Positions 14,481 through 51,290 of a stretch of DNA of 64,000 bases are shown here, in pieces. This DNA is from Gemmatimonadota bacterium (lineage in GTDB: Bacteria; Gemmatimonadota; Gemmatimonadetes; Longimicrobiales; Gaopeijiaceae). The notes under the pieces were generated by a model. It ran no database searches. It saw only the letters and a program-made list of their open reading frames with translations, and was not told the DNA's origin. The stretch's first letter is position 1; every line of letters starts with the position of its first letter. The translations under genes and the position numbers were made by a program. The stretch spans positions 89,237 through 153,236 of the forward strand of contig JAJDTB010000015.1 of the NCBI GenBank assembly GCA_022827345.1, given 5' to 3'.

Positions 14481-15713
14481 CTACCGCGCGGTGCTCGCGG
14501 CCGACAACGCCGAAAGGACGTAGTCGATTCCGGCTTCGGTGTGGTCGGCGTTGATCTGGAACCGGATCGATTCGTCGCCGCGCGGCACGACCGGGTAGGC
14601 GAGCCCGGTGGCCAGGACGCCCGCGTCGAAGAGGGCGGCCACCAGCCTGCGCGTCTCGGCCGTGTCGCGCACCATGATCGGGACGATGGGGTGGTCGCCC
14701 GGGATGATCTCGAAGCCGCGATCGAGCAGTCCCGCCTCGAACCGCTTCGTCAGGTTGCGCAGTCGCCGCAGGCGGGCCGCGCCACCGGGGCCGGTCAGGA
14801 TCTCCAGCGACTTCATGGCCGCCGCCGCCTCTCCCGCCGTGATCGGGTTGGAGTAGATGTACAGCGGCGACGACTCGCGCAGGAACCGGATCACCGGCGA
14901 ATTCGACACCACGTACCCGCCATTCACACCGAAGGCCTTCCCGAGCGTCCCCACCAGGATGTCGCACGGCGCGCTCTCCGTGTACTCTTCGGTGCCCCTG
15001 CCGGTGGGCCCGAACGCCCCGACCCCGTGGGAGTCGTCCACCAGGACCACGACGTTCTCCGGGTAGGCGTCGTCGTGGCGCTGGGCGATCTCCATGATCT
15101 CGTCGACCGGCGCGTGGTCCCCGCGCATCGAGAAGATGCCGTCGGTCACCACGATCGCCCGCCGGGCCTTCCCCTTGCCGACCTCGAGCTCACGGTCGAG
15201 GGCGTCCATGTCGAGGTGCGGGTAGATCGCCTTGCCCGCCGGCCGCGACATGCGGATCGCGTTGATGATGCAGTTGTGGTTGAGCTCGTCGGAGAGGACG
15301 AAGGTGGTCTTGTCGGTCAGCGACACCAGCGCGCTGACGACCGCCGCGTACGCCGACGAGAAGATCATCCCCTCCTCGCGCCCGTGGAACGCAGCCAGAG
15401 CGCGCTCCAGCGCCGTGTGCTGCGAGTGGGTGCCCGCGATGAACCGCACCGCGCCCGGCCCCGCGCCCATGGCCCGCGCGGTGACCTCCTCGGCCTCGAT
15501 CACCTCGGGATGAAGGCTGAGCCCCAGGTACGAGTTGGCGTTCATGCGGATGAAGGGCTTGTCCCCCTGTCCTTCCAGGAGAAAGCGGGGACCCTGTCCA
15601 CCCTGAGGCGGAATCACCTCGCGGACAACCACTTCGGCACCCTTGGCGGTGCCCTGCTGCTCGAGTCCGGCCACCAGTCCTTCGACCACGGTGACCAGGC
15701 GGTCCATCGGCAT
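14481..15713 (-). CDS. kbl: glycine C-acetyltransferase (2-amino-3-ketobutyrate CoA ligase)
   Basis: Alpha-oxoamine synthase family: SDELNHNCIINAIRMS, VDDSHGVGAFGPTGRG, and the PLP-lysine context GTLGKAFG. Sits directly downstream of a short-chain-type threonine dehydrogenase. Confidence 0.8.
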   Translation of the reverse strand: MPMDRLVTVVEGLVAGLEQQGTAKGAEVVVREVIPPQGGQGPRFLLEGQGDKPFIRMNANSYLGLSLHPEVIEAEEVTARAMGAGPGAVRFIAGTHSQHTALERALAAFHGREEGMIFSSAYAAVVSALVSLTDKTTFVLSDELNHNCIINAIRMSRPAGKAIYPHLDMDALDRELEVGKGKARRAIVVTDGIFSMRGDHAPVDEIMEIAQRHDDAYPENVVVLVDDSHGVGAFGPTGRGTEEYTESAPCDILVGTLGKAFGVNGGYVVSNSPVIRFLRESSPLYIYSNPITAGEAAAAMKSLEILTGPGGAARLRRLRNLTKRFEAGLLDRGFEIIPGDHPIVPIMVRDTAETRRLVAALFDAGVLATGLAYPVVPRGDESIRFQINADHTEAGIDYVLSALSAASTAR

Positions 15714-33845: not shown

Positions 33846-34925
33846 ATGCGAATCGCGATCAACACGGGTGGCGGCGACGCTCCCGGGCTCAACGCGGTGA
33901 TCCGGGCGGCGGTTCTGGCGGCGCAGGGCAGGGGATGGGATGTCGTCGGCATTCGCCGGGGCTACAGCGGTCTTTTCAAGCCACACGGCATCGTGCCGCT
34001 GACGGAGAGGTCGGTGAGCGGGATCACCCATATGGGCGGGACGATCCTGGGGACCTCGAACCGCGGGAATCCGTTCTCCTTCCCCGTCGAGCGGTCGGGC
34101 GGCACCGTCGAAATGGTGGACCGCTCCGACCAGGTGATCAGCAGGATCGAGGAACTGGGGATCGACTGCCTGATCGCGGTCGGGGGGGACGGGTCGCTGC
34201 GCATCGCCGCGGAGTTGGCGAACAAGGGACTCAAGGTCGTCGGGGTGCCGAAGACCATCGACAACGACCTGGACGCGACGGCGGTGACCTTCGGCTTCCA
34301 CACCGCGGTGCAGACGGCCACCGACGCGATCGGCAAGCTGCACTCCACCGCCGAGGCCCACCAGCGGGTGATGGTGGTCGAGCTCATGGGACGGCACGCC
34401 GGCTGGATCGCGCTCTTCGCGGGGTTCGCTTCCACCGCGGACGTAATCCTGATCCCCGAAATACCGTATGACCTTGCGAGGGTGGCGGAGAAGATCGGGG
34501 AGAGGTGGGCCGAGGGCTCCGAGTTCGCGATCATCGTGGTGGCCGAGGGGGCGATTCCGAAGGGTGGCGAGGCATCGTACCTGGAAAAACCGGCGCTGAG
34601 CGGCGGCAGGAGACTCGGAGGCGTGGCCAAGATGATCGCGTGGCAGCTGGAGGACCTTACCGGGCACGAAACCCGCAGCCTCGTTCTCGGGCACCTTCAG
34701 CGCGGCGGGGAACCAATCGCCTTCGACAGGATACTGTCTCTGAGCTTCGGCACGGCGGCGGTCGAGTTGATCGCAAACGGACAGTTCGGGTGCATGGTGG
34801 CGCTGGATCCTCCCAGGGTTCGGGGCGTGCCGCTCGCACAGGCCGTCAGCAAGCTGAAGACGGTGCCCCTGGACCACGAACTGATCCTCTCCGCCAGGGC
34901 GATGGGGATTTCCTTCGGAGACTGA
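33846..34925 (+). CDS. pfkA: ATP-dependent 6-phosphofructokinase
   Basis: N-terminus MRIAINTGGGDAPGLNAVIRA. VGGDGSLRIA has GGDGS rather than GGDDS, which favours ATP dependence. PKTIDNDL and MGRHAGWIA are also present. Confidence 0.9.
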   Translation: MRIAINTGGGDAPGLNAVIRAAVLAAQGRGWDVVGIRRGYSGLFKPHGIVPLTERSVSGITHMGGTILGTSNRGNPFSFPVERSGGTVEMVDRSDQVISRIEELGIDCLIAVGGDGSLRIAAELANKGLKVVGVPKTIDNDLDATAVTFGFHTAVQTATDAIGKLHSTAEAHQRVMVVELMGRHAGWIALFAGFASTADVILIPEIPYDLARVAEKIGERWAEGSEFAIIVVAEGAIPKGGEASYLEKPALSGGRRLGGVAKMIAWQLEDLTGHETRSLVLGHLQRGGEPIAFDRILSLSFGTAAVELIANGQFGCMVALDPPRVRGVPLAQAVSKLKTVPLDHELILSARAMGISFGD

Positions 34926-34953
34926 CAGCCCATGGACAAGGCTACCCGCTGAC

Positions 34954-35712
34954 ATGCGACTGATTCATCCGGCACTGGCCGTGATCACAGTCTGCGCCGC
35001 GCTCTGTCCGGGAGCGGCGGTGGGCCAGGATCCACCTGACACCGCCGGGGTCACGGTGGAAGGCGAAGTGCTGGACGTCACCAACAACGTCCCGGTCGCC
35101 GTGGCGATCGTCGCGATCCCGGCGCTCAACCGCAGCACGATCACCGATGAGCTGGGCTACTTCCGGCTCGAAGGGGTGCCCGCCGGGTTCTACCCGATTC
35201 AGGTGCACCGCGTGGGGTACGAAACCCTCGCGGCCGAGGTGCCGCTCAACGGGCAGGAGGTGCTGGGACTGTACCTGACCCCGGGCCCCGTGTCGCTGGA
35301 GGGGATCGAGGTGACGGTGACGAGCGAAGCGGACATGGAGCGGCGGGCGATGGGCATCTCGACCCGGAGCATCATCGGGCCGCTCGAGATGGAGGAGCTT
35401 CGCGAGCGCTACTTCAGCCTGGACCAGATCTTCCTGGGCCGCTATTTCCCGCGGGCCCGCTTCAGGCCGGGCCGCGGGCTGGGAGATCCCGGTTGCCTGA
35501 TGGTCTCCACACTGACGTTCAGCGGACGCAGGTGCGCGGCAGTGGTGGTCGACGGGGTGCTCCTTGGCCCCGAGGCGTCGCAATGGGTGTACCGGATGAG
35601 CACCCACGAAGTCTTCTCCGTCCGCTTCCTTCAGGGTCCCGGAGCCGCCCTGCGCTACGGTCATCGCGGCAGCGATGGGGTGCTGTTGATCGAGACGCGG
35701 GCAGGGCGCTGA
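34954..35712 (+). CDS. carboxypeptidase-regulatory-like (CarboxypepD_reg) domain protein
   Basis: Signal peptide, then GEVLDVTNNVPVAVAIVAIPALNRSTITDELGYFRLEGVPAGFYPIQVHRVGY. Confidence 0.65.
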   Translation: MRLIHPALAVITVCAALCPGAAVGQDPPDTAGVTVEGEVLDVTNNVPVAVAIVAIPALNRSTITDELGYFRLEGVPAGFYPIQVHRVGYETLAAEVPLNGQEVLGLYLTPGPVSLEGIEVTVTSEADMERRAMGISTRSIIGPLEMEELRERYFSLDQIFLGRYFPRARFRPGRGLGDPGCLMVSTLTFSGRRCAAVVVDGVLLGPEASQWVYRMSTHEVFSVRFLQGPGAALRYGHRGSDGVLLIETRAGR

Positions 35713-35714
35713 AA

Positions 35715-35733
35715 TGTAAAGACGACAGAAGTC
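35715..35733. repeat. truncated copy (D) of the AT-rich palindrome, abutting the island junction
   Basis: TGTAAAGACGACAG matches the left arm of copies A and C. Similarity is lost after about 35728, and integrase-flank homology begins at 35738. Confidence 0.5.
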
Positions 35734-35737
35734 CCCA

Positions 35738-35885
35738 ATTCGTGATCCTGTTGTGAGCGTGTTACTTACGGGATTCCAAGGTCCGATTCCCGCTGATCGG
35801 ATCAGACGCCTCCCTTGCGGGGACGGCTGTCCAGAGCCGTCCTAAGCTGTACTTCGTCGGTGTGCTGGTAACGCAGACTGCCAAC
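35738..35885 (-). pseudogene. 3' remnant of a tyrosine integrase plus its downstream flank (copy L)
   Basis: Reverse-strand translation of 35802-35882 gives GSLRYQHTDEVQLRTALDSRPRKGGV*. The intact integrase ends VLRCYQRADEGQLREALESRRRVQV*. The flank blocks CGTGTTACTTACGGG (35758-35772) and GATTCCCGCTGATCGG (35785-35800) are exact reverse complements of 42566-42580 and 42524-42539. Confidence 0.7.
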
Positions 35886-36188
35886 GCGCCGAATCAAGGC
35901 AAGAAATCACGTAAGTTCAATCAGGGCTGCACGATCTGCCACTCTTGCCATTGGGTTGCATCCGGTCGGATCGGGTCGCGAAAGCGGGAAAACCGGGATT
36001 GATTTGCGGGAATCGCGGGCGTCCTCATGTCCTTCTCAATCGGGCGATTGGCCATGTTCGCATTCGCGTGGCGATGGCGGGGAGGCATACCCATCTACGC
36101 CTTGATCGAGGGTAACGATCTGTAAGCAGTTGGGGCCAGCTGCCCTTTCCGCATCCTGTCAACCGGGAACGCCCGTCCCAGGCCACGA

Positions 36189-39100
36189 TCAGCCGTTCCG
36201 GACGAGGGCGGCCACTTTCTGCACCGTCTCGATGATCGCGCCACGCCCGCCGCCCCAGCAGAAGCGCCATGGCCGGTCATTCGGCCAGAGTTGGCGAACG
36301 TGGCGGCCGAAGTTGGTGCGAACGAAGCGAAGGATGACCAGCCCGTGATGGTCGGCCGCGTGCCGTTCGAGTTCGGGCAGGGCGCGACGCCAGTTGCTCC
36401 CCCATCCGGTCTGGACGAAGGTGGTGTGGATATGCGGATCGCGCTCGCGCAGTGCCTCGCGGACCGGTGCTTCCAGTTTGGCCGCCTCCTCGGCCCCCCC
36501 GGCGACCAGAATTCTGACATGTCTCCGCCGGGTCGGCGGCCCGCCCGCAGCGTCGGCACCCACTGCTCTTGCACCGCCCAACTGTTGGGCGAGAGCCCGG
36601 TGCCTGTCGCGCATCTCCCGGTAGAAAGAGGCGTCGATGCCGTACCCCGAGATCCGTGCCAGAATGCCGGCGGCGTCATGGAGACCGTCTTCGGTATCCT
36701 CTGAGGCTTTTCGGTGGAACAGCTCTCTCAGAATCCCGGTTGCGGCCTCGAACTCCCCGAGCGCCTCGTGGCTTCGGGCGCGCGCGATGGCAGAGTCCTC
36801 GCGGCTCCAAGCCGGATCGTAACCCGCCGGGTCGTTCAGGAGTTTCTGAAACTCCGGGACCGCCACGCCCTTCAGGGCGAGGCGTTCGAGTTCGTCCAGA
36901 GCGTCTCCGGCCCGTTCGTGCGACCGTGCATGCATGTGACCCCGGACGGCGGCCCGAAGATCGGCGGCCTTGAGATCGGCGGGCCTGCCGCTGTCGCTCG
37001 CCCGCGAATGGAGCTTTTCGGCAAGGAGCGGGCAGTGCCGGAGAGCCGGGCCGCACTCGGCGAGTGCGTCCAGCACGAGTCCGTCGGCAGCTTCGATGAC
37101 GGCTTCGGACACGCGCCGGAGATTCTCCTTGTCGTCGGCCAAGTCGAACGCTTCGACGGTCTCCCTGACGAGGTGGATCGGAAACCGAGCACCTGACGCG
37201 AGCGCGTCGACGATGACGCGGGCGGCGTGCATGAGCTTGTCGGGCTGAAGTTGCCGTGCTTTCGCGATTGCCGCATAGAGGTTGGATCGTGGCACCAGGC
37301 TTCCGTAGGATCGGACCCGCTTCGAGAAACGCAGGTGCGCGGCTACGAGATGGCGCTCAGCCGCGTCGTCGTCGTTGCCGCGAGCGAGCGCGAGGACACC
37401 CAGACAGTAGTGCCCGTGGGCGGAGCCGTCTGTCTCTTCCCGAACCGATTGCCGGAAGTGGTCCTCACCCTTGGCGAGACGCTCGCGAACGCTCGCCACG
37501 GCGGCCTGGCCGGTAGGCAGCGCAACATCCTCGATGGCGTCGAAACCGCCCGCCATCAGGCCGAGGTCGGCGTACACCATCGCACGGGCGTTTGGATCCG
37601 GATCTGCTACCAGAAGATCCTTCAGAATCCGCTCCGCCCGCTCGTGCTCGCGGAGTGCCCGGAGACTGTGCGCGAAGCGGCGTCTGGCGTCGAGCAGGAC
37701 CCGCTGTTCCGGAGCCGAACCGGCTTCCTCCAGCTGTTCGCCGACCCGGACGAGCAGGTCGAAGATGTGGCGGGCGTGGGTGGCGTCACCTTCCCGGAGG
37801 AGGTCCGTGGCTGCGGAGAGGAGCGGGTCGAAGAGCCGGGGTTCCAAGATCAGCGCGCGGTCGGTCAGCGACCGCCCGATCTCCGCGGTCCGGCCCACCC
37901 CGTGCAAGGCATTGACGATGGCGAGAACCGCGAACGCCGAAGCTGGGCTGCTCCCGGTCACCAACTCCCTGACGAATGGGTTGTCGTCGTACTCGCGCAC
38001 GATCCGGTCCCATCGTTCGCGCGCCGCCCATGCCTTCACGGCTCCCGTCCAGTACCATTGCAGGCGGGCCGGATGCTTGACGCTCAAGGAGTCGTCCGCG
38101 CTGCGGTCGAAGAGGCCGTCCCTGTATCCGGCATGGAAGCAGGACTCATGCCGGGTGCCGTTGAGCCTGACGAACTCCTCGATCACTGCGTCGATCTCGT
38201 TCTCGCTCAGCGCCCCCCTCGTCTCCCGCGCGCTCTCGTCGAGAGCCCGCTCGATAAGCCGGTCCAGGATCGTGAGCGATCCCGGACGGGAGGACGACGT
38301 GAGATGTCGGCGGGCCGGGGCAGCTTTCCCCTCGGCTTCATCAACGGAAGCCTCCTCCATGATCCCTGTCGGGGGCGTGGAAACGTCGCTTGGGTCATCC
38401 TCGCCACGGTCTTCCCCGTCCAGCACCGCCGGCGCCTGACGTTGCGGAACGTCCGGTGCGTCGGATGTCTCGGTTGCCGTCCTCGCAGCGTTTCGCCGGG
38501 CGGCCTTCCGCGGCTCAGGACCACCTCCCGGGTCACCCAGAGCCCAACGATCTCTGAGCCATGCGCGCGACTTCTCGCCCAGAGGCGCCCCGACCCCCCA
38601 AAGGACGAGGAGGTATAGGGCCACGGCCCGGTCCCCGTACTTGTCGGCCATCTTGGCCGCGACACTCGCCAAGGCGTCCTGTGAGGCGTCGATGCTCTCG
38701 ACCGATTCGACTTCGCCGTCGTCGTGCGGTATCCCGAGTCCGTCCAGGAAGGTCGTTACCATCGGGAGGCGTGCGGGCGTTTCGACGCTGGTCAGGAGGA
38801 TGAGCTGCGTGACCATCGGATCTTGCAGTGGAACGGTGCAAGTGGTCCGGACAAGCTTGTCGAGTGGCCAACGGCGAACCGTCTGCGGACGAAAACTCAT
38901 GGCGTCGGCCACCGCCTTGCAGACCGTCTCGCGCCCGATCTCGTCGCTCTCGATGAACCACCGAACCCCCTCCTCGCGCTCGTCTCGGTTCAGCACGTTC
39001 CACAGATTCACGGCACTTGGGCGCGTCGCCCGCTTCACCAACTGCTTGAGCCGGGGGTCGGTTTCCGTGCGGGAACCCGTCCGAACCGGCGTGGCTGGAG

Positions 39101-39359
39101 CCGATTCCTCGCTTTGGGGGTCTGGAGCACCGGCGCGGCGGTTGCCAAGGATGATCTTGCCGAGCTTGGTTATGGGCATGGATAGCGCAGGGCGGGCGGA
39201 TGGAGGCGGAGCTTGCAAATCTAATGCCTCCCGACGCCGGAGAGCGGTGCCGAGACGTGCCGGAGCCTCTGACGGCGGCTCAGACGCGGTTTCCGGGCGA
39301 CGGAGGGGCGTTTCGGGCAACCTACGGGCCGTGGAATGGGCCAGGATCGACGATCTCAT
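36189..39359 (-). CDS. large orphan protein (996-1056 aa): unknown N-terminal domain, long alpha-helical/TPR-like repeat region, C-terminal Rossmann-like module reminiscent of DUF2325
   Basis: The ORF is open from 39359. The first ~60 codons (MRSSILAHSTARR...) are derived from the duplicated integrase 5' block, so MPITKLGKIILG at 39179 is an alternative start. The C-terminus is VRILVAGGAEEAAK...HIHTTF...GLVILRFVRTNFGRHV...GGGRGAIIETVQKV. I found no Walker A or other catalytic motif by eye. Confidence 0.7.
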   Translation of the reverse strand: MRSSILAHSTARRLPETPLRRPETASEPPSEAPARLGTALRRREALDLQAPPPSARPALSMPITKLGKIILGNRRAGAPDPQSEESAPATPVRTGSRTETDPRLKQLVKRATRPSAVNLWNVLNRDEREEGVRWFIESDEIGRETVCKAVADAMSFRPQTVRRWPLDKLVRTTCTVPLQDPMVTQLILLTSVETPARLPMVTTFLDGLGIPHDDGEVESVESIDASQDALASVAAKMADKYGDRAVALYLLVLWGVGAPLGEKSRAWLRDRWALGDPGGGPEPRKAARRNAARTATETSDAPDVPQRQAPAVLDGEDRGEDDPSDVSTPPTGIMEEASVDEAEGKAAPARRHLTSSSRPGSLTILDRLIERALDESARETRGALSENEIDAVIEEFVRLNGTRHESCFHAGYRDGLFDRSADDSLSVKHPARLQWYWTGAVKAWAARERWDRIVREYDDNPFVRELVTGSSPASAFAVLAIVNALHGVGRTAEIGRSLTDRALILEPRLFDPLLSAATDLLREGDATHARHIFDLLVRVGEQLEEAGSAPEQRVLLDARRRFAHSLRALREHERAERILKDLLVADPDPNARAMVYADLGLMAGGFDAIEDVALPTGQAAVASVRERLAKGEDHFRQSVREETDGSAHGHYCLGVLALARGNDDDAAERHLVAAHLRFSKRVRSYGSLVPRSNLYAAIAKARQLQPDKLMHAARVIVDALASGARFPIHLVRETVEAFDLADDKENLRRVSEAVIEAADGLVLDALAECGPALRHCPLLAEKLHSRASDSGRPADLKAADLRAAVRGHMHARSHERAGDALDELERLALKGVAVPEFQKLLNDPAGYDPAWSREDSAIARARSHEALGEFEAATGILRELFHRKASEDTEDGLHDAAGILARISGYGIDASFYREMRDRHRALAQQLGGARAVGADAAGGPPTRRRHVRILVAGGAEEAAKLEAPVREALRERDPHIHTTFVQTGWGSNWRRALPELERHAADHHGLVILRFVRTNFGRHVRQLWPNDRPWRFCWGGGRGAIIETVQKVAALVRNG

Positions 39360-39390
39360 CCTCCCGAGGGGTACGGGTAGGGTCTAAACC
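39324..39390. repeat. block X-prime: direct repeat of the sequence at the 5' end of the disrupted integrase
   Basis: CCAGGATCGACGATC (39341-39355) and CCGAGGGGTACGGG (39364-39377) recur at 43651-43665 and 43674-43687 on the same strand. Flanking positions are partly conserved. Confidence 0.7.
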
Positions 39391-40027
39391 CGGCCGCGTG
39401 GAGAGCGCCGCCGTCAAAGAGGCTCCAGAGGGTTCGCCTTCGCCCTCGCCGTCCGCGAGTTGAAGAGCTTGCCCCCGGGCGACCCGGCCACCGCTGTGGC
39501 AGGCGGCGAGCGGGAAGGGTTCGCGGGCGTCCCCCAGGCTGGCTTGTGCCACGCTACGGTGGACAAGCCAGCGGACTCCCCGTGGCCACACTTCGTGCGG
39601 CACCGCGGAGGCTAGCGGGGGGCTGTGCCCCCTCTGACCCCCCCTCAATCACCAAGGCGTGTCGCAACCGGCTGGACGCCGAACGCGCCGTCTTCCCGTG
39701 CGCGCCGCGCACCGCGAGTTCTCGAAGTCGCTCCGGGAACGCCGCCTCGGGATTTGAAACCGTGGCCGCGTCCGCCGGGCAAGGAAGGAATCGCGCCGGG
39801 CGAGGACGGTGCTCGCCAAACCGGCGGCCTCCCGCCAGCGAGGATGCACGCGGTCGATCACCGGCGCTACTTCAGGTGACGTTCGAGCCGCCCCGAACAC
39901 CAATGGTGCCCGGCGAACCGGCGACATTGACGCTGCCCGACGACTCGCCGAGTTTTCCCGATAGGGCGATTCCCCGACTCATCCGCGTCCATTCCGGCGC
40001 GCACCTGGCCTCCGAAAGGGTAACGAC

Positions 40028-40708
40028 ATGGGCAGCTCGCATGATGCCGTCATGCAGTACGTGGAAGACGAACTGAAGAAGGACCGCCGCGTCAAGAACG
40101 CGACCTTGTTCGCCGGTGCCCGGGAGATCGAGGAGTCGGTGGGGGAGCTTACGCTGCAACAGTTTCACGCCAAGTACCGTCTGCCCGCGACCCGGCGCAT
40201 CGCACCGCCGCGACAGCCCGCACGGCAACCGAAGGCGGACCGGGCGCCTGCCCCCGTGCCCGCGCCATCCGGCGACGGCGCGGCCGTCATGGAGTTCGTG
40301 GTGCGGGCGCTCGAAGCGGACCCCGGCATCTCGAACGCGGACCTGTTCGCGGCGGCCCGCAAGATCGACCCCTCCGTCGCGGAACTCTCCGCCCGGCAGT
40401 TCCATGCGAAGTATCCGCTCCAAGTGAAGGCGCGGCTGGCAAAAGCCGCAACGGCCGAGCCCGATGCGCCGCCGGAACCGGAAGCGCCACCGGCTGAGGA
40501 AACGGCCGCCGGGGATGCGCCACCGACCGAGGAAGCCGCCGCCGAGGATGGGCCACCGGCGGGGACAGGCGACCCGTCCGCCGTGCGCCGTCTGCTGTTG
40601 GATCTGGCCAAGGAACTCGCGAACGCGGGGAGTCAGGCGGAGACGATCGAGGTCGTGGCCCGGCTGGATGACTATGTGGCCGACATTATGAAGGCGGCGC
40701 GGGGCTGA
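40028..40708 (+). CDS. hypothetical protein with two tandem ~50-aa repeats and a P/E/A-rich linker
   Basis: Repeat 1 is AVMQYVEDELKKDRRVKNATLFAGAREIEESVGELTLQQFHAKYRLP. Repeat 2 is AVMEFVVRALEADPGISNADLFAAARKIDPSVAELSARQFHAKYPLQ. A PPEPEAPPAEETAAGDAPPTEEAAAEDGPPAG linker follows, then a short C-terminal helix. Confidence 0.6.
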   Translation: MGSSHDAVMQYVEDELKKDRRVKNATLFAGAREIEESVGELTLQQFHAKYRLPATRRIAPPRQPARQPKADRAPAPVPAPSGDGAAVMEFVVRALEADPGISNADLFAAARKIDPSVAELSARQFHAKYPLQVKARLAKAATAEPDAPPEPEAPPAEETAAGDAPPTEEAAAEDGPPAGTGDPSAVRRLLLDLAKELANAGSQAETIEVVARLDDYVADIMKAARG

Positions 40709-41318
40709 GTCGTCGGCAAAGCCCGCGTGGTTGGAAACCGACATCGAGGGGCGGCGCGGGGCGCGGTGGCGCGACAGTACGAAAAGACGGCACAAGGGCT
40801 ACGTTGTCCCCCTGACCGAGGAGCCCGGTTCGCCGCCCGGTGACTCTTGAGACATCGGCAGCGAGCGCGGTCCACGGTTGCCAACGCCTTCCGGCACGGA
40901 TTGCTGGTCCGGAGCGACCCCCGAGGGAGGGTGGGATGGAAGTGCACATCCCAACCCTCCCCGATGCCACGCCAGGCATCGGAATCGGGGGGTCGCTCCG
41001 GTCACGGCCTCCGGTTCCGGCGCGGCGCAGCCGCCCCGGAGGCCGTGGTGCAACCTACAGCCGGACAACGACATGCAAAGTCGCGGACGTGCACGTCCGA
41101 ATCCCGTTTTCGCGCACATGCCCCCGATTTCACATGTGCGCCTCTGGATTGGCACCGGGACCCACCTCCGAGTCCGAACAACGGACTCCATCAAGCTTCG
41201 TGAGCCACACCCCGACTGACCCCCGATCATCCGCCTGAACCGCTCCCTTCGGGGCGGGACGGACCTGCCGGAAGACCTGCCACTGGCCAGACACGCCCGC
41301 GCGAGCGAAGTTTCAAGT

Positions 41319-42518
41319 GTGCAGATCGTGCAGCCCATCGTCGAAAGGAATCGAATGATGGGACGCACGAAACGGGACCGGCGCTCGTACAGCGCCGGCG
41401 AATGGGGCCGGAACCGGGTGAGGATCTTTGCCGACCCGAAGACCGGCATCCTCCAGATCGAGTGGCGAGAGAACGGGCGAAGGCTAACCCGGTCCCTCAA
41501 GCACCGCGACTGGCGGCGCGCGAAGCGGCAGGCCGACAAGTTTGCCGCAGGGTTCGCCGGGCCGGTATTGAACGGCAAGCAGGAAGCCGAGCCCAAGCCG
41601 CTGACTCTGGGCACGCTCTTTGACATCTACGGTGAGGAGGTGACGCCCACGAAGGGCAAGGGCACGCAAGCGCGCGACCGGTACTCGACCGAGATGTTTC
41701 TCGGGTTCTTCGGACGGGACCGCGACCCGGCGACCCTCTCGCAGCGCGATTGGGACCGGTTCATCCGGGAGCGCCGCGCGGGCAGGGTCGGGGCCTCGGG
41801 CCGGCCGGTGCGCAACCGGACGATCGAATGGGATCTGACGTTCCTGATGGCCGTGCTCAACTGGGCGGCGAGGTCGAGGGACGACCAGGGCCGCCTGTTC
41901 CTCGACAGGAATCCGCTGAAGGGCCTCAGGAAGCCCACGGCGAAGAACCCCGCGAGGGTTCTGCTGACCGAGGACGAGTACAGGGCGATGCTCGGGGTTT
42001 CCCGGCAGGTCAACTGGCGATTCCACGTCGCCCTCGTGCTCGCGCACGAGACCGGTCACCGAATCGGTGCCATCCGCCAGCTTCGGTGGAGTGACATCGA
42101 CTTCGAGGGCAGGACGATCCGGTGGAGGGCCAAGCACGAGAAGACGGGCTACGAGCACGTCACGCCGATGACGGACGAGGCCGTCGCCGCCTTGGAGGAG
42201 GCGCGGCGCATGACCACCGGCACGGGAGACACTCCGGTGATGCCCGCCGGGACGGACCCTTCCCGGTGCATGGACAGTTCCTGGGCCTACCAGTTCTGGT
42301 GCAGGGCGCAGAAGCGGGCGGGCTTGGAGCCCAAGCGCGGGAGGGGCTGGCACTCGCTCAGGCGAAAGTTCGCCTCGGACCTGATGGACCTGCCCCTCAA
42401 GGTCCTGTGCCAGCTGGGCGGCTGGAAGAACGCCCACACGGTTCTGCGCTGCTATCAGAGAGCCGACGAGGGACAACTCAGGGAGGCGCTGGAGAGCCGC
42501 CGCAGGGTTCAGGTCTGA
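41319..42518 (+). CDS. tyrosine-type site-specific recombinase/integrase, intact (probable ATG start at 41355)
   Basis: C-terminal catalytic domain with LAHETGHRIGAIRQLRWSDID, GWHSLRRKFASDL, and LGGWKNAHTVLRCYQ (R...HxxR...Y). Confidence 0.9.
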   Translation: MQIVQPIVERNRMMGRTKRDRRSYSAGEWGRNRVRIFADPKTGILQIEWRENGRRLTRSLKHRDWRRAKRQADKFAAGFAGPVLNGKQEAEPKPLTLGTLFDIYGEEVTPTKGKGTQARDRYSTEMFLGFFGRDRDPATLSQRDWDRFIRERRAGRVGASGRPVRNRTIEWDLTFLMAVLNWAARSRDDQGRLFLDRNPLKGLRKPTAKNPARVLLTEDEYRAMLGVSRQVNWRFHVALVLAHETGHRIGAIRQLRWSDIDFEGRTIRWRAKHEKTGYEHVTPMTDEAVAALEEARRMTTGTGDTPVMPAGTDPSRCMDSSWAYQFWCRAQKRAGLEPKRGRGWHSLRRKFASDLMDLPLKVLCQLGGWKNAHTVLRCYQRADEGQLREALESRRRVQV

Positions 42519-42609
42519 GAATCCCGATCAGCGGGAATCAAACGGCGGGAACCGGCTCGTCGAAACCCGTAAGTAACACGGGTACAGACAGATACGAATC
42601 CGGTTCCGT

Positions 42610-43640
42610 CCGCTGGTAACACCGCAGGACGGTCTAGGCCTCCTTCCAGCCACCGAGATCGCAGAGCACCTTGAGCGGCAGACCCATGAGGTCGGTCGCA
42701 CACTTGCGCCTCAGCGAGTGCCAGCCCCTTCCGCGCTTGGGCTCCAGCCCCGCCCGCCTCTCGGCGAACTTCCACCAAGCGGCCATCCGCGGGCCGCTCA
42801 CGCATGTCGAGGGATCCCGCAACGCGGGCAAAACCGGCGCGTCCCCGGACGCGTGATTGTGCTCCCTCGCCTCCTCCAAGGCTCCGGTCGCTTCGGCGGT
42901 CACCGGCGTCCGGTGCTCGTACCCGGTCTTCTCGTGCTCGGCCCGCCAGAGGATGGTCCGCTGCTCGAAGTCGATGTCAGACCACCTCAGCTTGCGGATG
43001 GCACTGATGCGGTGACCCGTTTCGTGCGCGAGTACGAGCGCGACGCGGAAGCGCCAGCCAACCCGCCCGGACACCTTGAGCATCGCCTCGCATTCCTCGT
43101 CGGAAAGCACGACCCGGGTGGGGTTCTTCACCGTCGGCACCCCTGAGTCCCTTGAGCGGGTTGGAGTCGATGAGCAGACCGCCCCGCTCGTCCCTCGACT
43201 TGGCGGCCCAGTTGAGGATCGCGAGCAGGATCCTCAGGTCGTAGCCCACGGTGCGGTCGGACGCGGGCTTGCCGCTCGGTCCGATCCTGCCCGCGCGCCG
43301 CTCCCGGATGAACCGGTCCCAGTCGCGCTGGGAAAGCGTCAGGGGACTGCGGTTCGGCCCGAAGATCGGAGAAACACTCTCATCGCGGCCCGGTCGGACC
43401 TCTGAGTCGTCTCCGCCTTGGTGGGCGTCACCTCTTCGCCGTAGATGTCAAAGAGCTTCTCCAGGGTGAGCGGCTCGGGCTCGGCTTCCGCCTTGCGCAG
43501 CGAATTCGTCCGCCTGCCGCTTCGCCCTCACCCAATCGCGGTGACCCAGCGATCGGGTGCGCCTGCGCCCGTTCTCTCGCCACTCCATCTGGTAAAGGCC
43601 GGTCTTGGCGTCGGGAAACACCCTCACGCGGTTCCGGGCT
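42610..43640 (-). pseudogene. disrupted paralogue of the integrase, tail-to-tail with the intact copy
   Basis: Homology to the intact integrase runs through three reading frames: ARNRVRVFPDAKTGLYQMEWRENGRR, then KAEAEPEPLTLEKLFDIYGEEVTPTK, then LSQRDWDRFIRERRAG...LNWAAKSRDERGGLLIDSNPLKGL, then PTVKNPTRVVLSDEECEAML...GWHSLRRKCATDL...LGGWKEA. An in-frame TAG at 42634-42636 precedes TVLRCYQR, and the native C-terminus is missing. Confidence 0.85.
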
Positions 43641-43878
43641 CTGGGATCGCCCAGGATCGACGATCGCCGACCTCCGAGGGGTACGGGGTCGGGTGAGAAT
43701 CGCCTTCGAGCACAGCCTCGACGAGGAACCGGGGGATCCCGAAGCGAACCGCGATGGCTGCCGGATCCTCGCCCCGGGCCGTCCGCTCACGGATATCGCA
43801 GGTGAGGCATACGGCTTCCCCCCGGGGACGGCCCACGTCGCAGGACCCACACCGCCGTTCCCCTGCTGACGGGGCCAC
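43624..43878 (-). CDS. putative small zinc-ribbon/HTH-like protein (possible excisionase or regulator)
   Basis: GTG start. Contains CGSCDV...CLTCDI followed by GEDPAAIAVRFGIPRFLVEAVLE. Its 3' end lies in repeat block X. Weak call. Confidence 0.3.
   Translation of the reverse strand: MAPSAGERRCGSCDVGRPRGEAVCLTCDIRERTARGEDPAAIAVRFGIPRFLVEAVLEGDSHPTPYPSEVGDRRSWAIPEPGTA
43634..43700. repeat. block X: direct-repeat partner of 39324-39390
   Basis: See block X-prime. The two copies are 4,310 bp apart on the same strand. Confidence 0.7.
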
Positions 43879-43907
43879 GACAGCGGCGGCAGCCGCCGAT
43901 CCGCCAT

Positions 43908-44102
43908 CTAGCTCGCTGGAGGCCGGGGCACTTGGAGGTCCTTGCAGATCTTTCTGGTGAGGTCCCGGTTGATCTCGTTGTGCCGGGGAATCGTCGAGAC
44001 CCTCTTGGCCGCCCGGTTGATGTAGAGGGTGTGGTTCGCGCCTTCGCGCAGAAAGGCGCATCCGTGGTATGCCAAGTGCCGCAGCAGGTCTCGGCGCTTC
44101 AC
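43908..44102 (-). CDS. hicA: HicA-family mRNA interferase toxin
   Basis: (M)KRRDLLRHLAYHGCAFLREGANHTLYINRAAKRVSTIPRHNEINRDLTRKICKDLQV is typical of HicA/YcfA. The GTG start shares a GTGA overlap with the hicB stop. Confidence 0.85.
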   Translation of the reverse strand: MKRRDLLRHLAYHGCAFLREGANHTLYINRAAKRVSTIPRHNEINRDLTRKICKDLQVPRPPAS

Positions 44103-44305
44103 GCCGTGACAGTGATGGGCTCTCTGATGACCGCACCGCCGTCGGCGTCTTCGCGGGCCATTTCCCGGTTGGCTTCGATCACCATGGCGACGGCTTCCCG
44201 CAGATTCGACCGAGCTTCTTCGAGGGAAGCGCCCTGGGTGTTGGCACCGGGAAACTCCTCGATGAAGGCGATGTAGCCTTCAGGGACTTTCCGGAACACC
44301 GCCAT
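44099..44305 (-). CDS. hicB: HicB-family antitoxin (short form)
   Basis: MAVFRKVPEGYIAFIEEFPGANTQGASLEEARSNLREAVAMVIEANRE shows the HicB N-terminal RNase-H-like fold pattern. Confidence 0.75.
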   Translation of the reverse strand: MAVFRKVPEGYIAFIEEFPGANTQGASLEEARSNLREAVAMVIEANREMAREDADGGAVIREPITVTA

Positions 44306-44571
44306 GCATTGCAGGTCCACCACTGAACTCCTTGTGACGCCGATGGATGCATTCACGCTAGCGGTCACCCGGCGCTAGCGCCATCCTCCGCCCGGGCGGT
44401 TCGGACGTCTCAACCTCGGCGGACACCGCCGCCAGCGGCTTGTCAAAAAGACCCCCGCCGGTAATCGCGGGGGGCCGCAGCGACGGCAACGGAACCGCGT
44501 GTGCCTATTGGCAGGCGAGAGCCGGTATGGAATCGGCTGCCGCCGGACGGCTTCGTGATCCCTGCCCAGCG

Positions 44572-45801
44572 TCACCTTAACGGGCTGCTCATTACCTCAT
44601 ATACCTCCACGAACTCCACGCCCAGTTCGTCCCGCCTCAGCACGGCGATCCTCCCGTGCGCCACATCCAATAGCTCGTGCGGCTGGCCCGTCACAGCGAC
44701 CGTATCCTCAATCCAGATAGGCCGAAGCACCGGGAGGCTGAGCTTCCCGACCGGCGTCCCGTTCGCGTCGAGAATCGTCCAGCGCCGCATCTCGTCGGCC
44801 AGCTTCGGGTAGTCGCCGATCCAGATCCCCCCATCGGGGTCGACGCTGATCGCACCATAGGCCGGATAGGTGTCCCGCACCGTCGACTGCTCCAGCCGCC
44901 GGCGCCAGTTCGCGTGAACTTCCTCGGGGAGAATCGCCAGGAAGGTCTCGGTCCACTCTTCCTTCTCCGCTGCCGTGACCACCCGCGGCGAGTACCCGCC
45001 GCGAATCCGGGTGACGGGGGCGGCTCCCCGGTAGAGTGTGAGGTTCAGCGAATCGTTCGTGCCGACGAGCGCGTGTTCTCCTCGTCCGGTAAAGAGCGCG
45101 GTGAGGCCGAACCCGACGGGGTTCCAGTCGTCGCCGACGTGGCGCTCCTTGCCCGCCCACTGGCCGAGCGTATCGACGATCTCGCCAGCGTCGTTCGCGA
45201 GCACGAGGAAAACCGGACCCCGCTGGATTCCCGGGGGTAGGGTCGGCCGCGTCTCCAGTGCCGCGAGCACCTCTCCGCTCCCCAGCCGACTCAGCGGGAC
45301 CGCCGCCCCGAGTCCCGCCCCCTGCTCCAAGCGGATGATGTCGGTCACCGTTCCCTGCGAGTCCAGAAAGGTCAGTCGGCGCTGACGCCAATCAAAGACG
45401 AACGGCGCGCCATCCGGGCCGACCGCGACTCGCTTGATATCCAAGTACTCCCCTGGCCCCTCGCCTTCCCGACCCGAACGCGCGCGAACCGTCCCGTCCG
45501 GTTCAAGGAAGGTGAGTTCGAACAGCCGACTGTCGGCGATGACCAGCGACGAATCCGGCAGAAACGCAGCCGCTATGACCGCCTCGAAGAAGAGATCGGC
45601 AATCGTGGTGGTGGTATGAAGGAGTCGCAGCTCCACCTCAGGCAGGTCGAGCATGTGGACATCCGAAACCCGGACGATCTCCACGCCCGCAGAATCGGCA
45701 GTCGTGATGCAGCCCCTGCTTGCCGTCTCGGTTGACTGACTCTCGCATGCCATGGTGGTGGAGAGTGCGGCGAAGATGAGAAAGCGCGAAGTCTGTGACA
45801 T
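44572..45801 (-). CDS. 6-bladed beta-propeller-type lipoprotein
   Basis: Lipobox AALSTTMAC. Repeated D/G-rich strand patterns and IWIGDY. Family call is tentative. Confidence 0.55.
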   Translation of the reverse strand: MSQTSRFLIFAALSTTMACESQSTETASRGCITTADSAGVEIVRVSDVHMLDLPEVELRLLHTTTTIADLFFEAVIAAAFLPDSSLVIADSRLFELTFLEPDGTVRARSGREGEGPGEYLDIKRVAVGPDGAPFVFDWRQRRLTFLDSQGTVTDIIRLEQGAGLGAAVPLSRLGSGEVLAALETRPTLPPGIQRGPVFLVLANDAGEIVDTLGQWAGKERHVGDDWNPVGFGLTALFTGRGEHALVGTNDSLNLTLYRGAAPVTRIRGGYSPRVVTAAEKEEWTETFLAILPEEVHANWRRRLEQSTVRDTYPAYGAISVDPDGGIWIGDYPKLADEMRRWTILDANGTPVGKLSLPVLRPIWIEDTVAVTGQPHELLDVAHGRIAVLRRDELGVEFVEVYEVMSSPLR

Positions 45802-46012
45802 TCTCTGGTCCTTCCGACGGCGGTGGTCCCGCAGGTTCCACCAAGAACGCTACGAGACCTTGAGTAGCTTCTACAATCGAAAACAGGTACGGGTGAAGCA
45901 GTGCAAATGTTCGTTGGGGCCGACGAGGAAGTGGCAATGCCGGTCATTGATTCCCCCGAAAACCGCGCTCACGCGTTACTAGCTCGACGGCACCCCAGGC
46001 GGTGTTCGTTTG

Positions 46013-47698
46013 TCAGCGACTCAACTCCGCGAGCTTCGCCCTCGCCAGTTGCGCTGGCTCGTAGTCCTCATCGGCGTTCTCCCACACGGTAAGCGCGCTC
46101 GTCAGGTTCTCCACCGCCCCCCCGATGTCCCCCCGTGTCTCCATCAGAAACGCCATCTCCAGGTGCGCGTGCGGATCGGCCGGAACCAAACGAAACGCCT
46201 CCCGCAGCTCGGCTTCCGCTTCGTCGAGGAAGCCCGCGCGGCGCAGCGCGCGACCCGCTCCACGGTAGTACCTACCCTCCGGCGATAGGGCGATAGCTGC
46301 CCTGAAGCTCTCCGCCGCCCCTGCGTAGTCCTCCGCGCGGTCGCGGATTAGCCCCAGGTCCCCCAAGAGGGTTGCCCTGATGAGTCCCCGAACATCCCCA
46401 GCCTCCACTGCGTCCGACGCTTGCCGGTGCGCATCGAGAGCGGCTGCCACGCCCTGCGCCGCAAGAGCGACGTGAACGGTCGCGCTTGCGACGTAGGTAG
46501 ACAACGGTGTCTGGAGCCCTGCCCGCACTTCCTCCAGGAGGGTGACCGCCTCGTCGACACGACCCGCGTCAAGATATACGAGGATGTCGCCGACGCGCCC
46601 GAGAGCCATGGCGCGCGGCGTCTCGAAGCCTGACTCCTCCTGCACCCTTGCCTCAATCGCGTGGATCGCATCTGCCATCTCCCCACGCCGGTGGTGATAA
46701 CGAGTAAGCCACGACAGCGCCCGGGCCCGCTGCGCTCGAGTGCTGGCTTGTGCCAACAAACGGTCGTACCCGGCACGGGCTTCCTCCAATCGCCCGACAT
46801 CCAGATCGAGGTCCGCGAGCAACCTCGCAGGTCCCTGTGACAGAGGTTCCAAGGCGATGGCCCGCTCCAGCGCTTCGCGCGCGTCTTCGTGCTGGCCGCG
46901 CCGCCGGTGGAAGTCCGCCAGCGAGTAGTATCCGGATACGTCTCCGGGGAACCGCTCTACATGCTCGGTCCACAGGGACAAAGCCTCGGCATAGTTGCCC
47001 AGACTCTCGTGTGCTCGGGCCATAGACAGGATTGGTCGGCCGTCGAGGGGATCGAGGCGGCGGATCTCGGTTAGGGTCGCCAGCACATCCTCCCATTCAC
47101 CGTTCGCCAGCTGCATCCCGGCCAGAATGTTCAACGCGTTCAAGTCGTTGGGATACAGTCCGACCCACATGTCCACTACGGTCGCCACTTTGTCCGTCTC
47201 CCCAGTCTCCACGTAGTACTCCGCCCTGATCTGGAAGCCGTAGCGCTCGGGCACTCGGTAGAGGTTCTCCATGGCCGCCACCAGCGGTGCCATGGCGACG
47301 ACCGCACCCTCCGCCGATTGTCGCAACACGAGGTGCAAGGCGTATTGTGCGATGGTGAAGCTGGGATCGAGGGTTGTGGCGGTGGTCAGGTATTCTATGG
47401 CCCCCTCGACATCTCGGTGGACGCGGTCGAGGAAAACCCCCTTGAAGAAAGCCTCCACTGCGGCGGCGTTCTCGGAGAGCCGTGAGTGTAAAGGCAAGTC
47501 CTCGACGCCTTCGCGGACAGGGATCTCCAGGGCTCTCTTCACGGGTCCCGACATCTCATCGACAAGTGCGAGCAGGTCGGTCCCTTCGTGGAAGGTCTCC
47601 CCCGCGAGCGATCCGTTACCCGCTCTGTACACCCTGAGGTCGCGTGGCAAGCTCGCCAATGACGGCTGGGAAGCGGGAGGACTTTCCGGCGTGTCCAT
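46013..47698 (-). CDS. tetratricopeptide (TPR) repeat protein
   Basis: Multiple 34-aa A/L/Y/G-patterned repeats, for example NYAEALSLWTEHVERFPGDVSGYYSLADFHRRRGQHEDAREALERAIALEP. Confidence 0.8.
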   Translation of the reverse strand: MDTPESPPASQPSLASLPRDLRVYRAGNGSLAGETFHEGTDLLALVDEMSGPVKRALEIPVREGVEDLPLHSRLSENAAAVEAFFKGVFLDRVHRDVEGAIEYLTTATTLDPSFTIAQYALHLVLRQSAEGAVVAMAPLVAAMENLYRVPERYGFQIRAEYYVETGETDKVATVVDMWVGLYPNDLNALNILAGMQLANGEWEDVLATLTEIRRLDPLDGRPILSMARAHESLGNYAEALSLWTEHVERFPGDVSGYYSLADFHRRRGQHEDAREALERAIALEPLSQGPARLLADLDLDVGRLEEARAGYDRLLAQASTRAQRARALSWLTRYHHRRGEMADAIHAIEARVQEESGFETPRAMALGRVGDILVYLDAGRVDEAVTLLEEVRAGLQTPLSTYVASATVHVALAAQGVAAALDAHRQASDAVEAGDVRGLIRATLLGDLGLIRDRAEDYAGAAESFRAAIALSPEGRYYRGAGRALRRAGFLDEAEAELREAFRLVPADPHAHLEMAFLMETRGDIGGAVENLTSALTVWENADEDYEPAQLARAKLAELSR

Positions 47699-47992
47699 CC
47701 GAACAGTCTAGGTCCGCTACAGGACCGTGGCAAACCGCAGTCGTGTCCAGTCGAGAGACCGGGGCGGAGGCACACTTTTGTTGAACAGGCTGATTGAAGG
47801 TGAGCCCCGGACATCCCTTGAGTCCGCTCAAGAAGGCGGTCCGAACGGCTTTGGGAGTCCCGCTATTCCGGTCCGTTTTTCCCGCTTTCGCGTTACGGTC
47901 CAGCAGGGTCCAGCCCAACGGCAGGAAACGCAGATCGTGCAGCCCTGTAAGTAGTTAGACGGGTTCCTGCCGCGATTTCGACCCTTGCCATG

Positions 47993-48031
47993 CTGCAACA
48001 ACGACATTACATTATGTAATGTTCTCTATAC
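47993..48031. promoter_or_regulatory. AT-rich 39-bp palindrome, copy E, with a perfect 19-bp core palindrome
   Basis: Sequence is TGCAACAACGACATTACATTATGTAATGTTCTCTATACA. The core ACATTACAT-T-ATGTAATGT (48003-48021) is perfectly palindromic. On the plus strand: ATTACA (48005-48010), 17-nt spacer, TACATT (48028-48033). Confidence 0.55.
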
Positions 48032-48055
48032 ATTTTTGGGACTCCCAGCGAGCCG

Positions 48056-50752: not shown

Positions 50753-50774
50753 GGTGGGAAGGTAACTATCCCCG

Positions 50775-51290
50775 ATGGACATCGCCGCCACGCTGCGCAG
50801 CTACGATGGGAAGCGCGTCGCGCCCTTCCGCGCGGTGGCGGAGGCGGTGCGGGACGCGCCGGAGCGCGCGATCGGCCAGCTCGTCGACCTTGCCGCGTCG
50901 GACGAGATGGCGCTTCAAGTGGGCGCAACGTGGGTGCTCAAGCACCTCGCCGAGCGGGGTGCGCCACCGCGCGGTTCCGGTGCGGCGAGGCTCCTGGACC
51001 TGCTGGGTCGGCCGATTGCGCCCGACGCGGCGTTGCACATCCTGCAGACCCTGCCGCACATGCGCATCGAGGCCGGCCAGCGGGGCGCCCTCCGGAAAGC
51101 GCTGGTGGGGCTGATCCGGTCGCGCCGCACCTTCATACGCGCCTGGGCGTACAGCGGACTCGGCATTCTGGCTGCGCACGACCCCACGCTGCGATCCGAC
51201 GTCGAACGCCTGTTCGACGAAGCCATGAAGACCGACTCCGCCGCCGTGAAGGTCCGCATCCGACACGCCCGCGCGGCGATGGCGCGCTAG
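50775..51290 (+). CDS. hypothetical HEAT/ARM-like helical protein
   Basis: 171-aa helical repeat-like sequence, possibly resembling a DNA-alkylation-repair-type repeat. Very tentative. Confidence 0.4.
   Translation: MDIAATLRSYDGKRVAPFRAVAEAVRDAPERAIGQLVDLAASDEMALQVGATWVLKHLAERGAPPRGSGAARLLDLLGRPIAPDAALHILQTLPHMRIEAGQRGALRKALVGLIRSRRTFIRAWAYSGLGILAAHDPTLRSDVERLFDEAMKTDSAAVKVRIRHARAAMAR

Follow-up and report, generated by a model that had tools for sequence, protein, structure and literature searches.

Two integrase genes at 35.7-48.0 kb

The DNA studied here, referred to as the window, is a stretch of 64,000 nucleotides of contig JAJDTB010000015.1 from a sponge-associated Longimicrobiales genome (Gemmatimonadota), and all positions given are those of the window. 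The region between 35.7 and 48.0 kb is, in our judgement, very probably a composite island of 12.3 kb formed by two related tyrosine-recombinase elements, one of them nested in opposite orientation within the other. The inner element, B (35873-42611), comprises 6,748 bp counting one copy of its repeat, and the outer element, R (35728-48000), is intergenic. Both have the same layout, consisting of an end module, cargo, an integrase gene and an attachment arm of ~90 nt, with B in plus and R in minus orientation.

Integrase B (41319-42518, plus strand) is an intact protein of 399 aa that matches PF00589 at E=1e-19 (71.4 bits, cut-off 27.1) and phrog_1 at E=3e-48. Alignment with XerA (PDB 4a8e) pairs its catalytic residues GHR, HSLRRKF, GGW and RCY with GLR, HQLRHSF, LGH and QIY, respectively, the Tyr of ..LRCYQ.. 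falling on the catalytic Tyr of XerA, which places the protein in the tyrosine recombinase superfamily. Integrase B gave no Pfam match to an arm-binding or SAM-like N-terminal domain, no excisionase was identified, and a look-up of identical proteins gave no match. Downstream of the gene lie the integrase-side attachment arm of B (42519-42611, plus strand; nhmmer E=1e-39; 76-98% conserved in 12 loci), with two GCGGGAA motifs (42531 and 42545) and one CGTAAGT (42568), and the right copy of a 9-bp direct repeat, GCTGGTAAC (42612-42620). The left copy (35864-35872) adjoins the far-end module of B (35873-36035, plus strand), a conserved sequence of ~180 nt located away from the integrase (53 family hits with nhmmer, E=1e-42; alignment A1), which contains CGTAAGT (35910), an inverted 16-nt motif (35924-35939) and two GCGGGAA (35984 and 36006). 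In each arm of B there are two GCGGGAA and one CGTAAGT, oriented alike, in columns nearly invariant across the family; repeats of this kind are typical of arm-type sites for protein binding, which they may be here.

The integrase gene of R is found in two pieces on either side of B, both on the minus strand. Fragment A (35802-35872) is its 3' part, stop codon included; it starts at ..YQ and reads YQHTDEVQLRTALDSRPRKGGV*, the asterisk denoting a stop. The left copy of GCTGGTAAC covers on this strand G-TTA-CCA-GC, corresponding to Cys-Tyr-Gln of R's integrase. Fragment C (42612-43726), a pseudogene detected by tblastn, is the 5' part and adjoins integrase B about 95 nt downstream on the opposite strand; it ends ..GGWKEA*TVLRCYQ, and the likeness to integrases ends exactly at ..TVLRCYQ. 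C and integrase B share 72.8% nucleotide identity over 1057 aligned nt, with 74-80% in ungapped segments. An earlier, sequence-only reading of this DNA had already noticed an integrase C-terminus on the reverse strand at the left; the translation agrees, with the difference that the fragment belongs to a second integrase that has been split, of which it forms the 3' part, and is no loose relic. The R integrase carries four frame changes and one TAG, for which locus L002 has CAG, so that R is probably no longer mobile.

The integrase-side attachment arm of R (35728-35801, minus strand; nhmmer E=2e-19; aligned to 42519-42599) contains GCGGGAA (reverse complement at 35787) and CGTAAGT (reverse complement at 35764). 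At the other extreme, the far-end module of R (47833-48000, minus strand; blastn 75% over 93 nt; nhmmer E=5e-43) is the inverted homologue of 35873-36035, with the 16-nt motif at 47930-47945. A profile search, which finds this module 53 times in related loci, matches the window at 35858-36035(+) and 48011-47833(-). The resulting second inverted repeat, in which 35922-36014 matches 47947-47855 inverted, defines the outer element. R is flanked by the 6-bp direct repeat ACGACA, at 35722-35727 on its integrase side and at 48001-48006.

The sequence-only reading had also described DNA of the integrase flank that recurs in inverted form, bracketing a segment with a live integrase between recombinase-associated homologous sequences. 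This description was right. The reverse complement of 35738-35872 is homologous to 42463-42599, the block GATTCCCGCTGATCGG at 35785-35800 recurs exactly, as its reverse complement, at 42524-42539, and the exact 15-mer at 35758-35772 is part of a longer match between 35758-35793 and 42545-42580 (83% over 36 nt). Gapped local alignment of the reverse complement of 35650-36000 with 42350-42700 scored 66, far from the values of 300 shuffles (mean 19, maximum 29). The aligned region runs from the last ~55 nt of the integrase coding sequence through the flank to 35738 and 42599, and a profile of 83 family sequences covering the integrase 3' end plus flank (35860-35722(-), E=2e-19; 42460-42617(+), E=1e-39, nhmmer) corrects the left limit of the homology to about 35722.

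Element B in the integrase gene of element R

Deletion of the 6,748 bp of B, keeping one copy of the repeat, brings C and A into one frame that reads ..GGWKEA*TVLRCYQHTDEVQLRTALDSRPRKGGV* in a three-frame read. Given the direct repeats and this in-frame fusion, 35873-42611 looks like an insertion in an active-site codon and not like a cassette between switch sites, and we hold with high confidence that B was inserted at the catalytic-Tyr codon (..LRC-Y-Q..) of R's integrase. Read in its own sense, the target is CGGTGT-TACCAGC-ACACCG, in which the two arms of a 6-bp inverted repeat enclose a 7-bp spacer whose first three letters are the catalytic Tyr codon. Two copies of the core identity are found around each element, GCTGGTAAC for B and ACGACA for R, and the same 9 bp flank a B element in locus L006.

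Population data came from assembled contigs of sponge metagenome runs (X1-X5, X7, X8 and X12), in which the window sequence occurs. Unoccupied targets with a single repeat copy were found for both elements. For B, the joint 35863->42612, where nine letters fit both sides, was observed in X2 in a contig of 252 nt (depth 66.5) made of the unique sequence 35683-35872 followed by 62 nt from 42621 on; this form coexists with an occupied left-junction contig (35844-39634, depth 51.5). For R, contigs of 1587 and 4680 nt in X5 and X7 contain the joint 35721->48001 at flank depth, with 6 and 4 shared letters, and there the left and right chromosomal neighbours of the island are contiguous. The ACGACA repeats and this empty site had been predicted from sequence before the contig data, and the contigs then matched. 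The R target is an intergenic palindromic site, AATGTAA-AGACGACA-TTACATT, and GCTGGTAAC is absent from the empty chromosomal site. Depths of B and R cargo agree with a B-less form of R, at 13 vs 33 in X3 and 16 vs 91 in X4, but were 16 vs 14 in X1. The larger cargo of R had a depth of ~0 in X5, X7, X8 and X12 while B cargo was present, which indicates that B also lives elsewhere.

A scan of one genome per species gave at least 550 relatives of integrase B, with several copies per genome. The 79 loci fetched come mostly from metagenome assemblies of Longimicrobiales or other Gemmatimonadota, with a few contigs labelled as other phyla (Vicinamibacteraceae, Terriglobia, Binatia, Dehalococcoidia and Gammaproteobacteria). 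Eleven of them, in genome assemblies of Longimicrobiales, cluster with B in the integrase tree (L001-L006, L008-L010, L020 and L023; 81-96% amino-acid identity), and all 11 have a convergent integrase ~90-100 nt downstream, cut at query residue 380-385. Their common junction consists of ..GATACGAATCTG....GTCC, then GCTGGTA(A/G)C, then AC.G.AG.AC.GTC..; the core of L023 deviates (GCTGATAGC). The inserted sides are 78-98% identical over 900 nt and the target sides 64-87% over 700 nt, and four B-type loci sit at different positions of one chromosome. Since the target sides are much less alike and the chromosomal places differ, these are independent insertions, and the convergent orientation is identical in the 12 independent loci. 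L006 holds this B element at 95% identity (over 35799-42694) within another integrase, flanked on each side by a copy of GCTGGTAAC, the displaced fragment reading YQRADEGQLRKALEARRRVSV*, and the same composite as in the window occurs in L002. A metagenome scan with the 19-mer of the left junction (attL) gave 18 matches, of which 17 were unrelated chance matches and one, L096, was a real third left junction. L018 contains, within a tandem array, a joint resembling that of a circular form (attP), with arm, GCTGGTAGC and end module in succession.

These observations would be accounted for by two successive integrations. R would have entered first, by tyrosine-recombinase site-specific recombination at the intergenic palindrome, leaving its integrase at the left end on the minus strand. 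B would have integrated later, in the opposite orientation, in R's integrase gene, with GCTGGTAAC as attachment core; this step would have duplicated the 9-bp identity and parted the last 20 codons and the arm of R (35728-35872) from 42612-43726. Integrase B is the presumed catalyst, and would exchange strands within GCTGGTAAC between attP, which in the circle would consist of 42519-42620 followed by 35873-36035, and the site in the target integrase gene. As B and R are homologous and oppositely oriented, the displaced 3' end and arm of R and those of B itself form inverted repeats around B. The inverted repeats are therefore the homologous integrase 3' ends and attachment arms of two elements, a by-product of their head-to-head nesting.

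The sequence-only reading had left room for inverted tandem integrations. Oppositely oriented integrations are indeed recorded at the locus, nested inside the integrase gene of the other element and not in tandem at a shared site. A tail-to-tail, side-by-side integration at one shared chromosomal site, followed by decay and with B outside R's gene, would agree with the tandem arrays that exist in the family (L007, L012 and L018) and with the decayed R integrase, but we consider it very unlikely: A and C lie on the same strand and come into frame once exactly 6,748 bp are taken out, they directly follow one another in the B-less contig, the repeat GCTGGTAAC of B differs from the ACGACA of R and lies in coding sequence, and the empty chromosomal site is devoid of GCTGGTAAC.

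The sequence-only reading had also given recombinase-mediated inversion as a possibility. In such a switch, integrase B or homologous recombination would flip the 6.8-kb segment between 35738-35800 and 42519-42599, as real inverted repeats enclosing a live recombinase might lead one to expect. The crossovers lie elsewhere, at the direct repeat GCTGGTAAC, outside the right inverted repeat and inside the left integrase remnant, and direct repeats lead to insertion and excision rather than inversion; the polymorphism observed is presence or absence at the direct 9-bp repeats, in line with the B-less contigs. The joint list for 35650-42625, complete at 95% likeness in X1-X4, contains no opposite-strand joint between the repeat copies, and none was found among the joints listed for four other runs. 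A single orientation was thus seen in the contig joints of eight sponge metagenome runs, in data of a kind that cannot show rare forms. Besides, the 12 independent loci share one orientation, and the repeats, about 72% identical with at most 16 exact bases, are a poor substrate for homologous recombination. The hairpin CCCGTAAGTAACACGGG, put forward as a possible core site, folds in the right copy only (-8.2 kcal/mol); its left counterpart reads ...ACACGCTC and gives no fold (-1.7 kcal/mol), and other subfamilies read CCCGTAAGTTCAACGATCAC at that place, so that the candidate core is not conserved. Inversion of the segment is in consequence scarcely credible.

A mis-joining of repeated integrase copies in the source assembly is likewise highly improbable: integrase sequences are about 25x over-represented in metagenomes and short-read contigs break within them, but independent short-read contigs of X1, the run in which every word of the window is present, span the two B junctions without a mismatch (34000-35935 and 42152-42741), the composite recurs in L002, and B has both junctions in L006.

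Several observations weigh against this account of B at the Tyr codon. Of the 11 other B-type loci, nine have their left junction beyond the 10 kb fetched, and a simple insertion is established for the window and L006 only, plus the left junction of L096. In L001-like loci, what lies upstream of the integrase shows no relation to B, similarity beginning sharply at 41321, and the integrase-plus-arm module may move or recombine as a unit. No joint of an excised circle was seen among the contig data, which cannot show rare forms. Contig depths are a crude measure, the sum of 66.5 and 51.5 exceeding the X2 flank depth of about 85. The recombination event itself is deduced from sequence and contigs.

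The target codon was compared with the corresponding codons of the family. All 10 occupied targets scored read TACCAGC at Tyr-Gln-(next codon), and the target of L023, which stands outside this count, reads TATCAGC. On the other hand, 14 of 17 integrases at least 80% identical to B, a set that includes five loci not targeting the Tyr codon, have TATCAGA, and 15 other intact family integrases carry TACCAGC unoccupied. These counts fit a core sequence that B's own gene would not offer. That this self-immunity evolved as such is a hypothesis, against which stand AGR codons at that position in other clades too. The five loci without a neighbour at the Tyr site (L007, L011, L012, L013 and L018) are 80-83% identical to B; L007, L012 and L013 use a different target, and L011 a non-integrase site with the same core. 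Hitting the Tyr codon may benefit B by providing a harmless, ever-present landing site, by the loss of the host element's integrase, or by hitch-hiking.

Cargo, shared modules and targets across the family

The cargo of B consists of two genes. An orphan open reading frame (ORF) of 1056 aa (36189-39359, minus strand) probably starts near 39218, its homologues having about 1000 aa, and a 226-aa protein with an internal duplication of ~50 aa is encoded at 40028-40708 (plus strand; ORF and third-position GC signal). No function was obtained for either protein from Pfam, NCBIfam, PADLOC or PHROGs. Only 26 homologues of the 1056-aa protein were found, all unnamed and two with TPR_19, and the 226-aa gene has homologues in L080, L028, L037 and L060. 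In L080 (3485-7406), homologues of both B orphan genes stand together with a DUF433/DUF5615 pair and a 1129-aa N6_Mtase/Type_ISP_C enzyme resembling Type ISP methylase/restriction enzymes, a neighbourhood that hints at defence-type cargo in these elements. The integrase was the sole match of B in the PHROGs scan, with neither structural nor replication genes of a prophage, and the three ORFs of B gave no match to MobC or relaxase, as would be found in an integrative mobilizable element in the strict sense. Some B-type integrases do adjoin mobC and relaxase genes (L001, Pfam), and the sharp start at 41321 of the similarity to B in these mobC/relaxase loci indicates that the cargo is modular.

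Positions 39325-39377, just upstream of the 1056-aa gene, are similar in direct orientation to 43635-43687, the 5' end of the R integrase (79% over 53 nt), and several loci contain sequences 67-74% identical to the region 39254-39643. This part of the B cargo may preserve what is left of the 5' end of an earlier integrase. A conserved non-coding module at 40886-41163 (blastn to more than 20 loci, with no clear coding frame) precedes the integrase in many members of the family, in one orientation or the other. In addition, a joint 41054->41319 (depth 59 in X1 and 621 in X4) represents a common variant without the 264 nt directly upstream of the integrase motif. This variant, together with the similarity boundary at 41321, suggests frequent recombination at the integrase 5' end. 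In the metatranscriptome run X6, contig depth reached 7233 over 41042-41475, whereas the neighbouring chromosomal gene had 43 and the cargo of B about 1-3; the DNA of the same sample has the integrase region at about 25x flank. Family integrases appear to be strongly transcribed, with contig depth as a crude measure.

R carries on the minus strand, at 43908-44368, a HicA toxin gene (43908-44102; PF07927, E=7e-8) and a HicB-like antitoxin gene (44099-44368) that has weak UPF0150/HicB-like matches, followed at 44572-47698 by genes for a 409-aa protein without family match and a 561-aa TPR protein. A joint 44332->47877 (X2 and X7) corresponds to a shorter R-like variant without the two latter genes, in which HicAB directly adjoins the far-end module. 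Another joint, 35777->47920 (X2, depth 65, shorter side 32 nt), connects the outer ~50 nt of the R arm to the outer ~80 nt of the far-end module, which may point to a miniature derivative lacking the integrase at this site, or else to a quirk of mapping. On the chromosome, the island is preceded by a gene for a CarboxypepD_reg-like protein of 252 aa (34954-35712, plus strand; PF13715/PF13620) and followed by one for a 911-aa protein with a PIG-L/LmbE-type deacetylase domain (48056-50791, minus strand; NCBIfam matches below cut-off). No tRNA genes were found in the window, and a tRNA-targeted island at this locus was ruled out on that ground. An Rfam search of 35000-48500 gave no match, and neither promoters nor terminators were detected by a scan of 35650-36250.

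A 16-nt motif, GCAGATCGTGCAGCCC, occurs without mismatch at the integrase 5' end throughout practically the whole family, where it overlaps possible GTG start codons, and also, inverted, in every far-end module (154 matches in L001-L079). The window contains three copies against 0.11 expected: 41321-41336(+), at the integrase 5' end and at the similarity boundary with other B-type loci, 35924-35939(-) and 47930-47945(+). In the far-end module the motif lies between the arms CGGCAGGAA/TTCCTGCCG, which form a stem at columns 26-34/72-80 of alignment A1 that pairs in 92% of cells, with 14 double changes vs 6.2 expected and many G-U pairs on one strand. The motif could act through an antisense RNA or as an operator controlling the integrase, or else serve as a module-swap site. 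As to a small RNA made from the far-end module, this candidate is not supported: RNAalifold favours another weak fold, and the energies are no better than those of shuffles (z = -0.85 and -0.28). The far-end module showed no enrichment in metatranscriptome contigs.

A survey of ~85 integrase-side junctions, combined with a neighbour-joining tree of 89 integrases, revealed that target class tracks integrase clade. Integrase genes are struck at three or more distinct positions across clades: in reverse orientation at the catalytic-Tyr site, in the same orientation at codon ~97 (LFDIYGEEV; L024, L025, L028 and L034, ~11272), and in both orientations at codon ~60 (SLKHRDW; L052, 11272; L058, 3761-3816). 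L083 (3267-3446) is a further locus among the insertions at codon ~97 or ~60. Other clades use the GNNLNQIAR motif of MobC/NikA-like genes (two clades; Pfam-confirmed in L031), a REP-like hairpin GCTGGCT..CCTTA..AGCCAGCC (about 20 loci) or tRNA genes (three loci). Loci with mobC, REP-like or tRNA targets just after the integrase-side arm include L026, L030, L031, L033, L042, L051 and L055. In L018, a far-end module (11268-11300 and 14833-14960) is split after ~35 nt by a 3.5-kb insertion, so the far-end module is also a nesting target.

The B clade might be viewed as a dedicated "integrase hunter" in a network of mutually parasitising or competing elements, with synonymous self-escape and possibly tuning through the 16-nt motif, a proposal that we put forward tentatively and regard as somewhat doubtful. 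Under such a view, the core would have evolved to match the TG[TC]-TAC-CAG-C of sibling integrases, and B would land only inside other mobile elements, disabling their integrase and riding along; this too we rate as conceivable and short of probable.

Significance and comparison with known systems

Known integrative elements choose conserved host genes and, in a few cases, conserved parts of conjugative elements, whereas the target found here is the active-site Tyr codon of relatives. A sibling integrase would be a target guaranteed wherever relatives exist, without cost to the host and with the mobility of a competitor disabled, which makes the locus a concrete case in which conflict or hyperparasitism among sibling mobile elements can be tested. 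If this is true, integrase hunters and their sister clades would form a mobile-element network parasitising or competing in sponge-symbiont genomes. The family offers a natural series of close integrases with different short targets, useful for studying the retargeting of tyrosine integrases, and helps to explain the over-representation of integrases in sponge-symbiont metagenomes and the many broken or truncated copies near queried integrases. A lesson for annotation is that inverted repeats enclosing a recombinase can stem from nesting and not from a switch.

B resembles lambda-type islands and prophage integrases in its PF00589 signature (R..HxxR..W/H..Y), the position of the integrase at one end, the short core and the long arms with repeated motifs, and some sister clades also use tRNA genes. 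It differs from them in that its target gene is not regenerated, and in the lack of an identified excisionase and of a detectable arm-binding or SAM-like domain. With invertible switches (Fim, Hin/Gin, shufflons) B shares a recombinase gene beside inverted repeats; in those systems the repeats are the crossover sites and both orientations occur, neither of which was found here. The "res-site hunters" of the Tn5053/Tn402 family belong to the DDE transposons and have the DNA sites of serine resolvases as their target. They are similar to B in landing preferentially in the recombination machinery of other mobile elements, and different in that B uses a tyrosine recombinase and a short identity inside recombinase coding sequence.

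The "suicidal" integrases of SSV-type archaeal elements have their own gene split into N- and C-terminal fragments on integration (PMC7253208). The likeness lies in a split integrase gene on either side of integrated DNA. In contrast to that arrangement, integrase B is intact, the split gene is the other element's paralogue (about 73% nucleotide identity), and its fragments lie outside B's repeats; the B core is 93 nt downstream of B's stop codon, so that attP is not within its own integrase ORF, as it is in the SSV type.

The nearest precedent is given by the streptococcal "hunter" integrative mobilizable elements, which target the oriT nic site, or conserved Maff2-like and SNF2-like genes, in conjugative elements of the Tn916, ICESt3 and Tn5252 types (PMC5704250). 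Both systems have a single tyrosine integrase, a site-specific hit on a conserved mobile-element sequence, disruption of the target gene and nesting, and some B relatives carry mobC and relaxase like them (L001). The differences are the target of B, which is a sibling-family integrase at its catalytic-Tyr codon, its Gemmatimonadota host, and the lack of a mobilization gene match in B. A limited literature search, which is no proof of absence, found no case of integration in the active-site codon of a sibling integrase. Altogether, B is a site-specific integrative element whose target is unusual and apparently undescribed, and its closest counterparts are these streptococcal elements.

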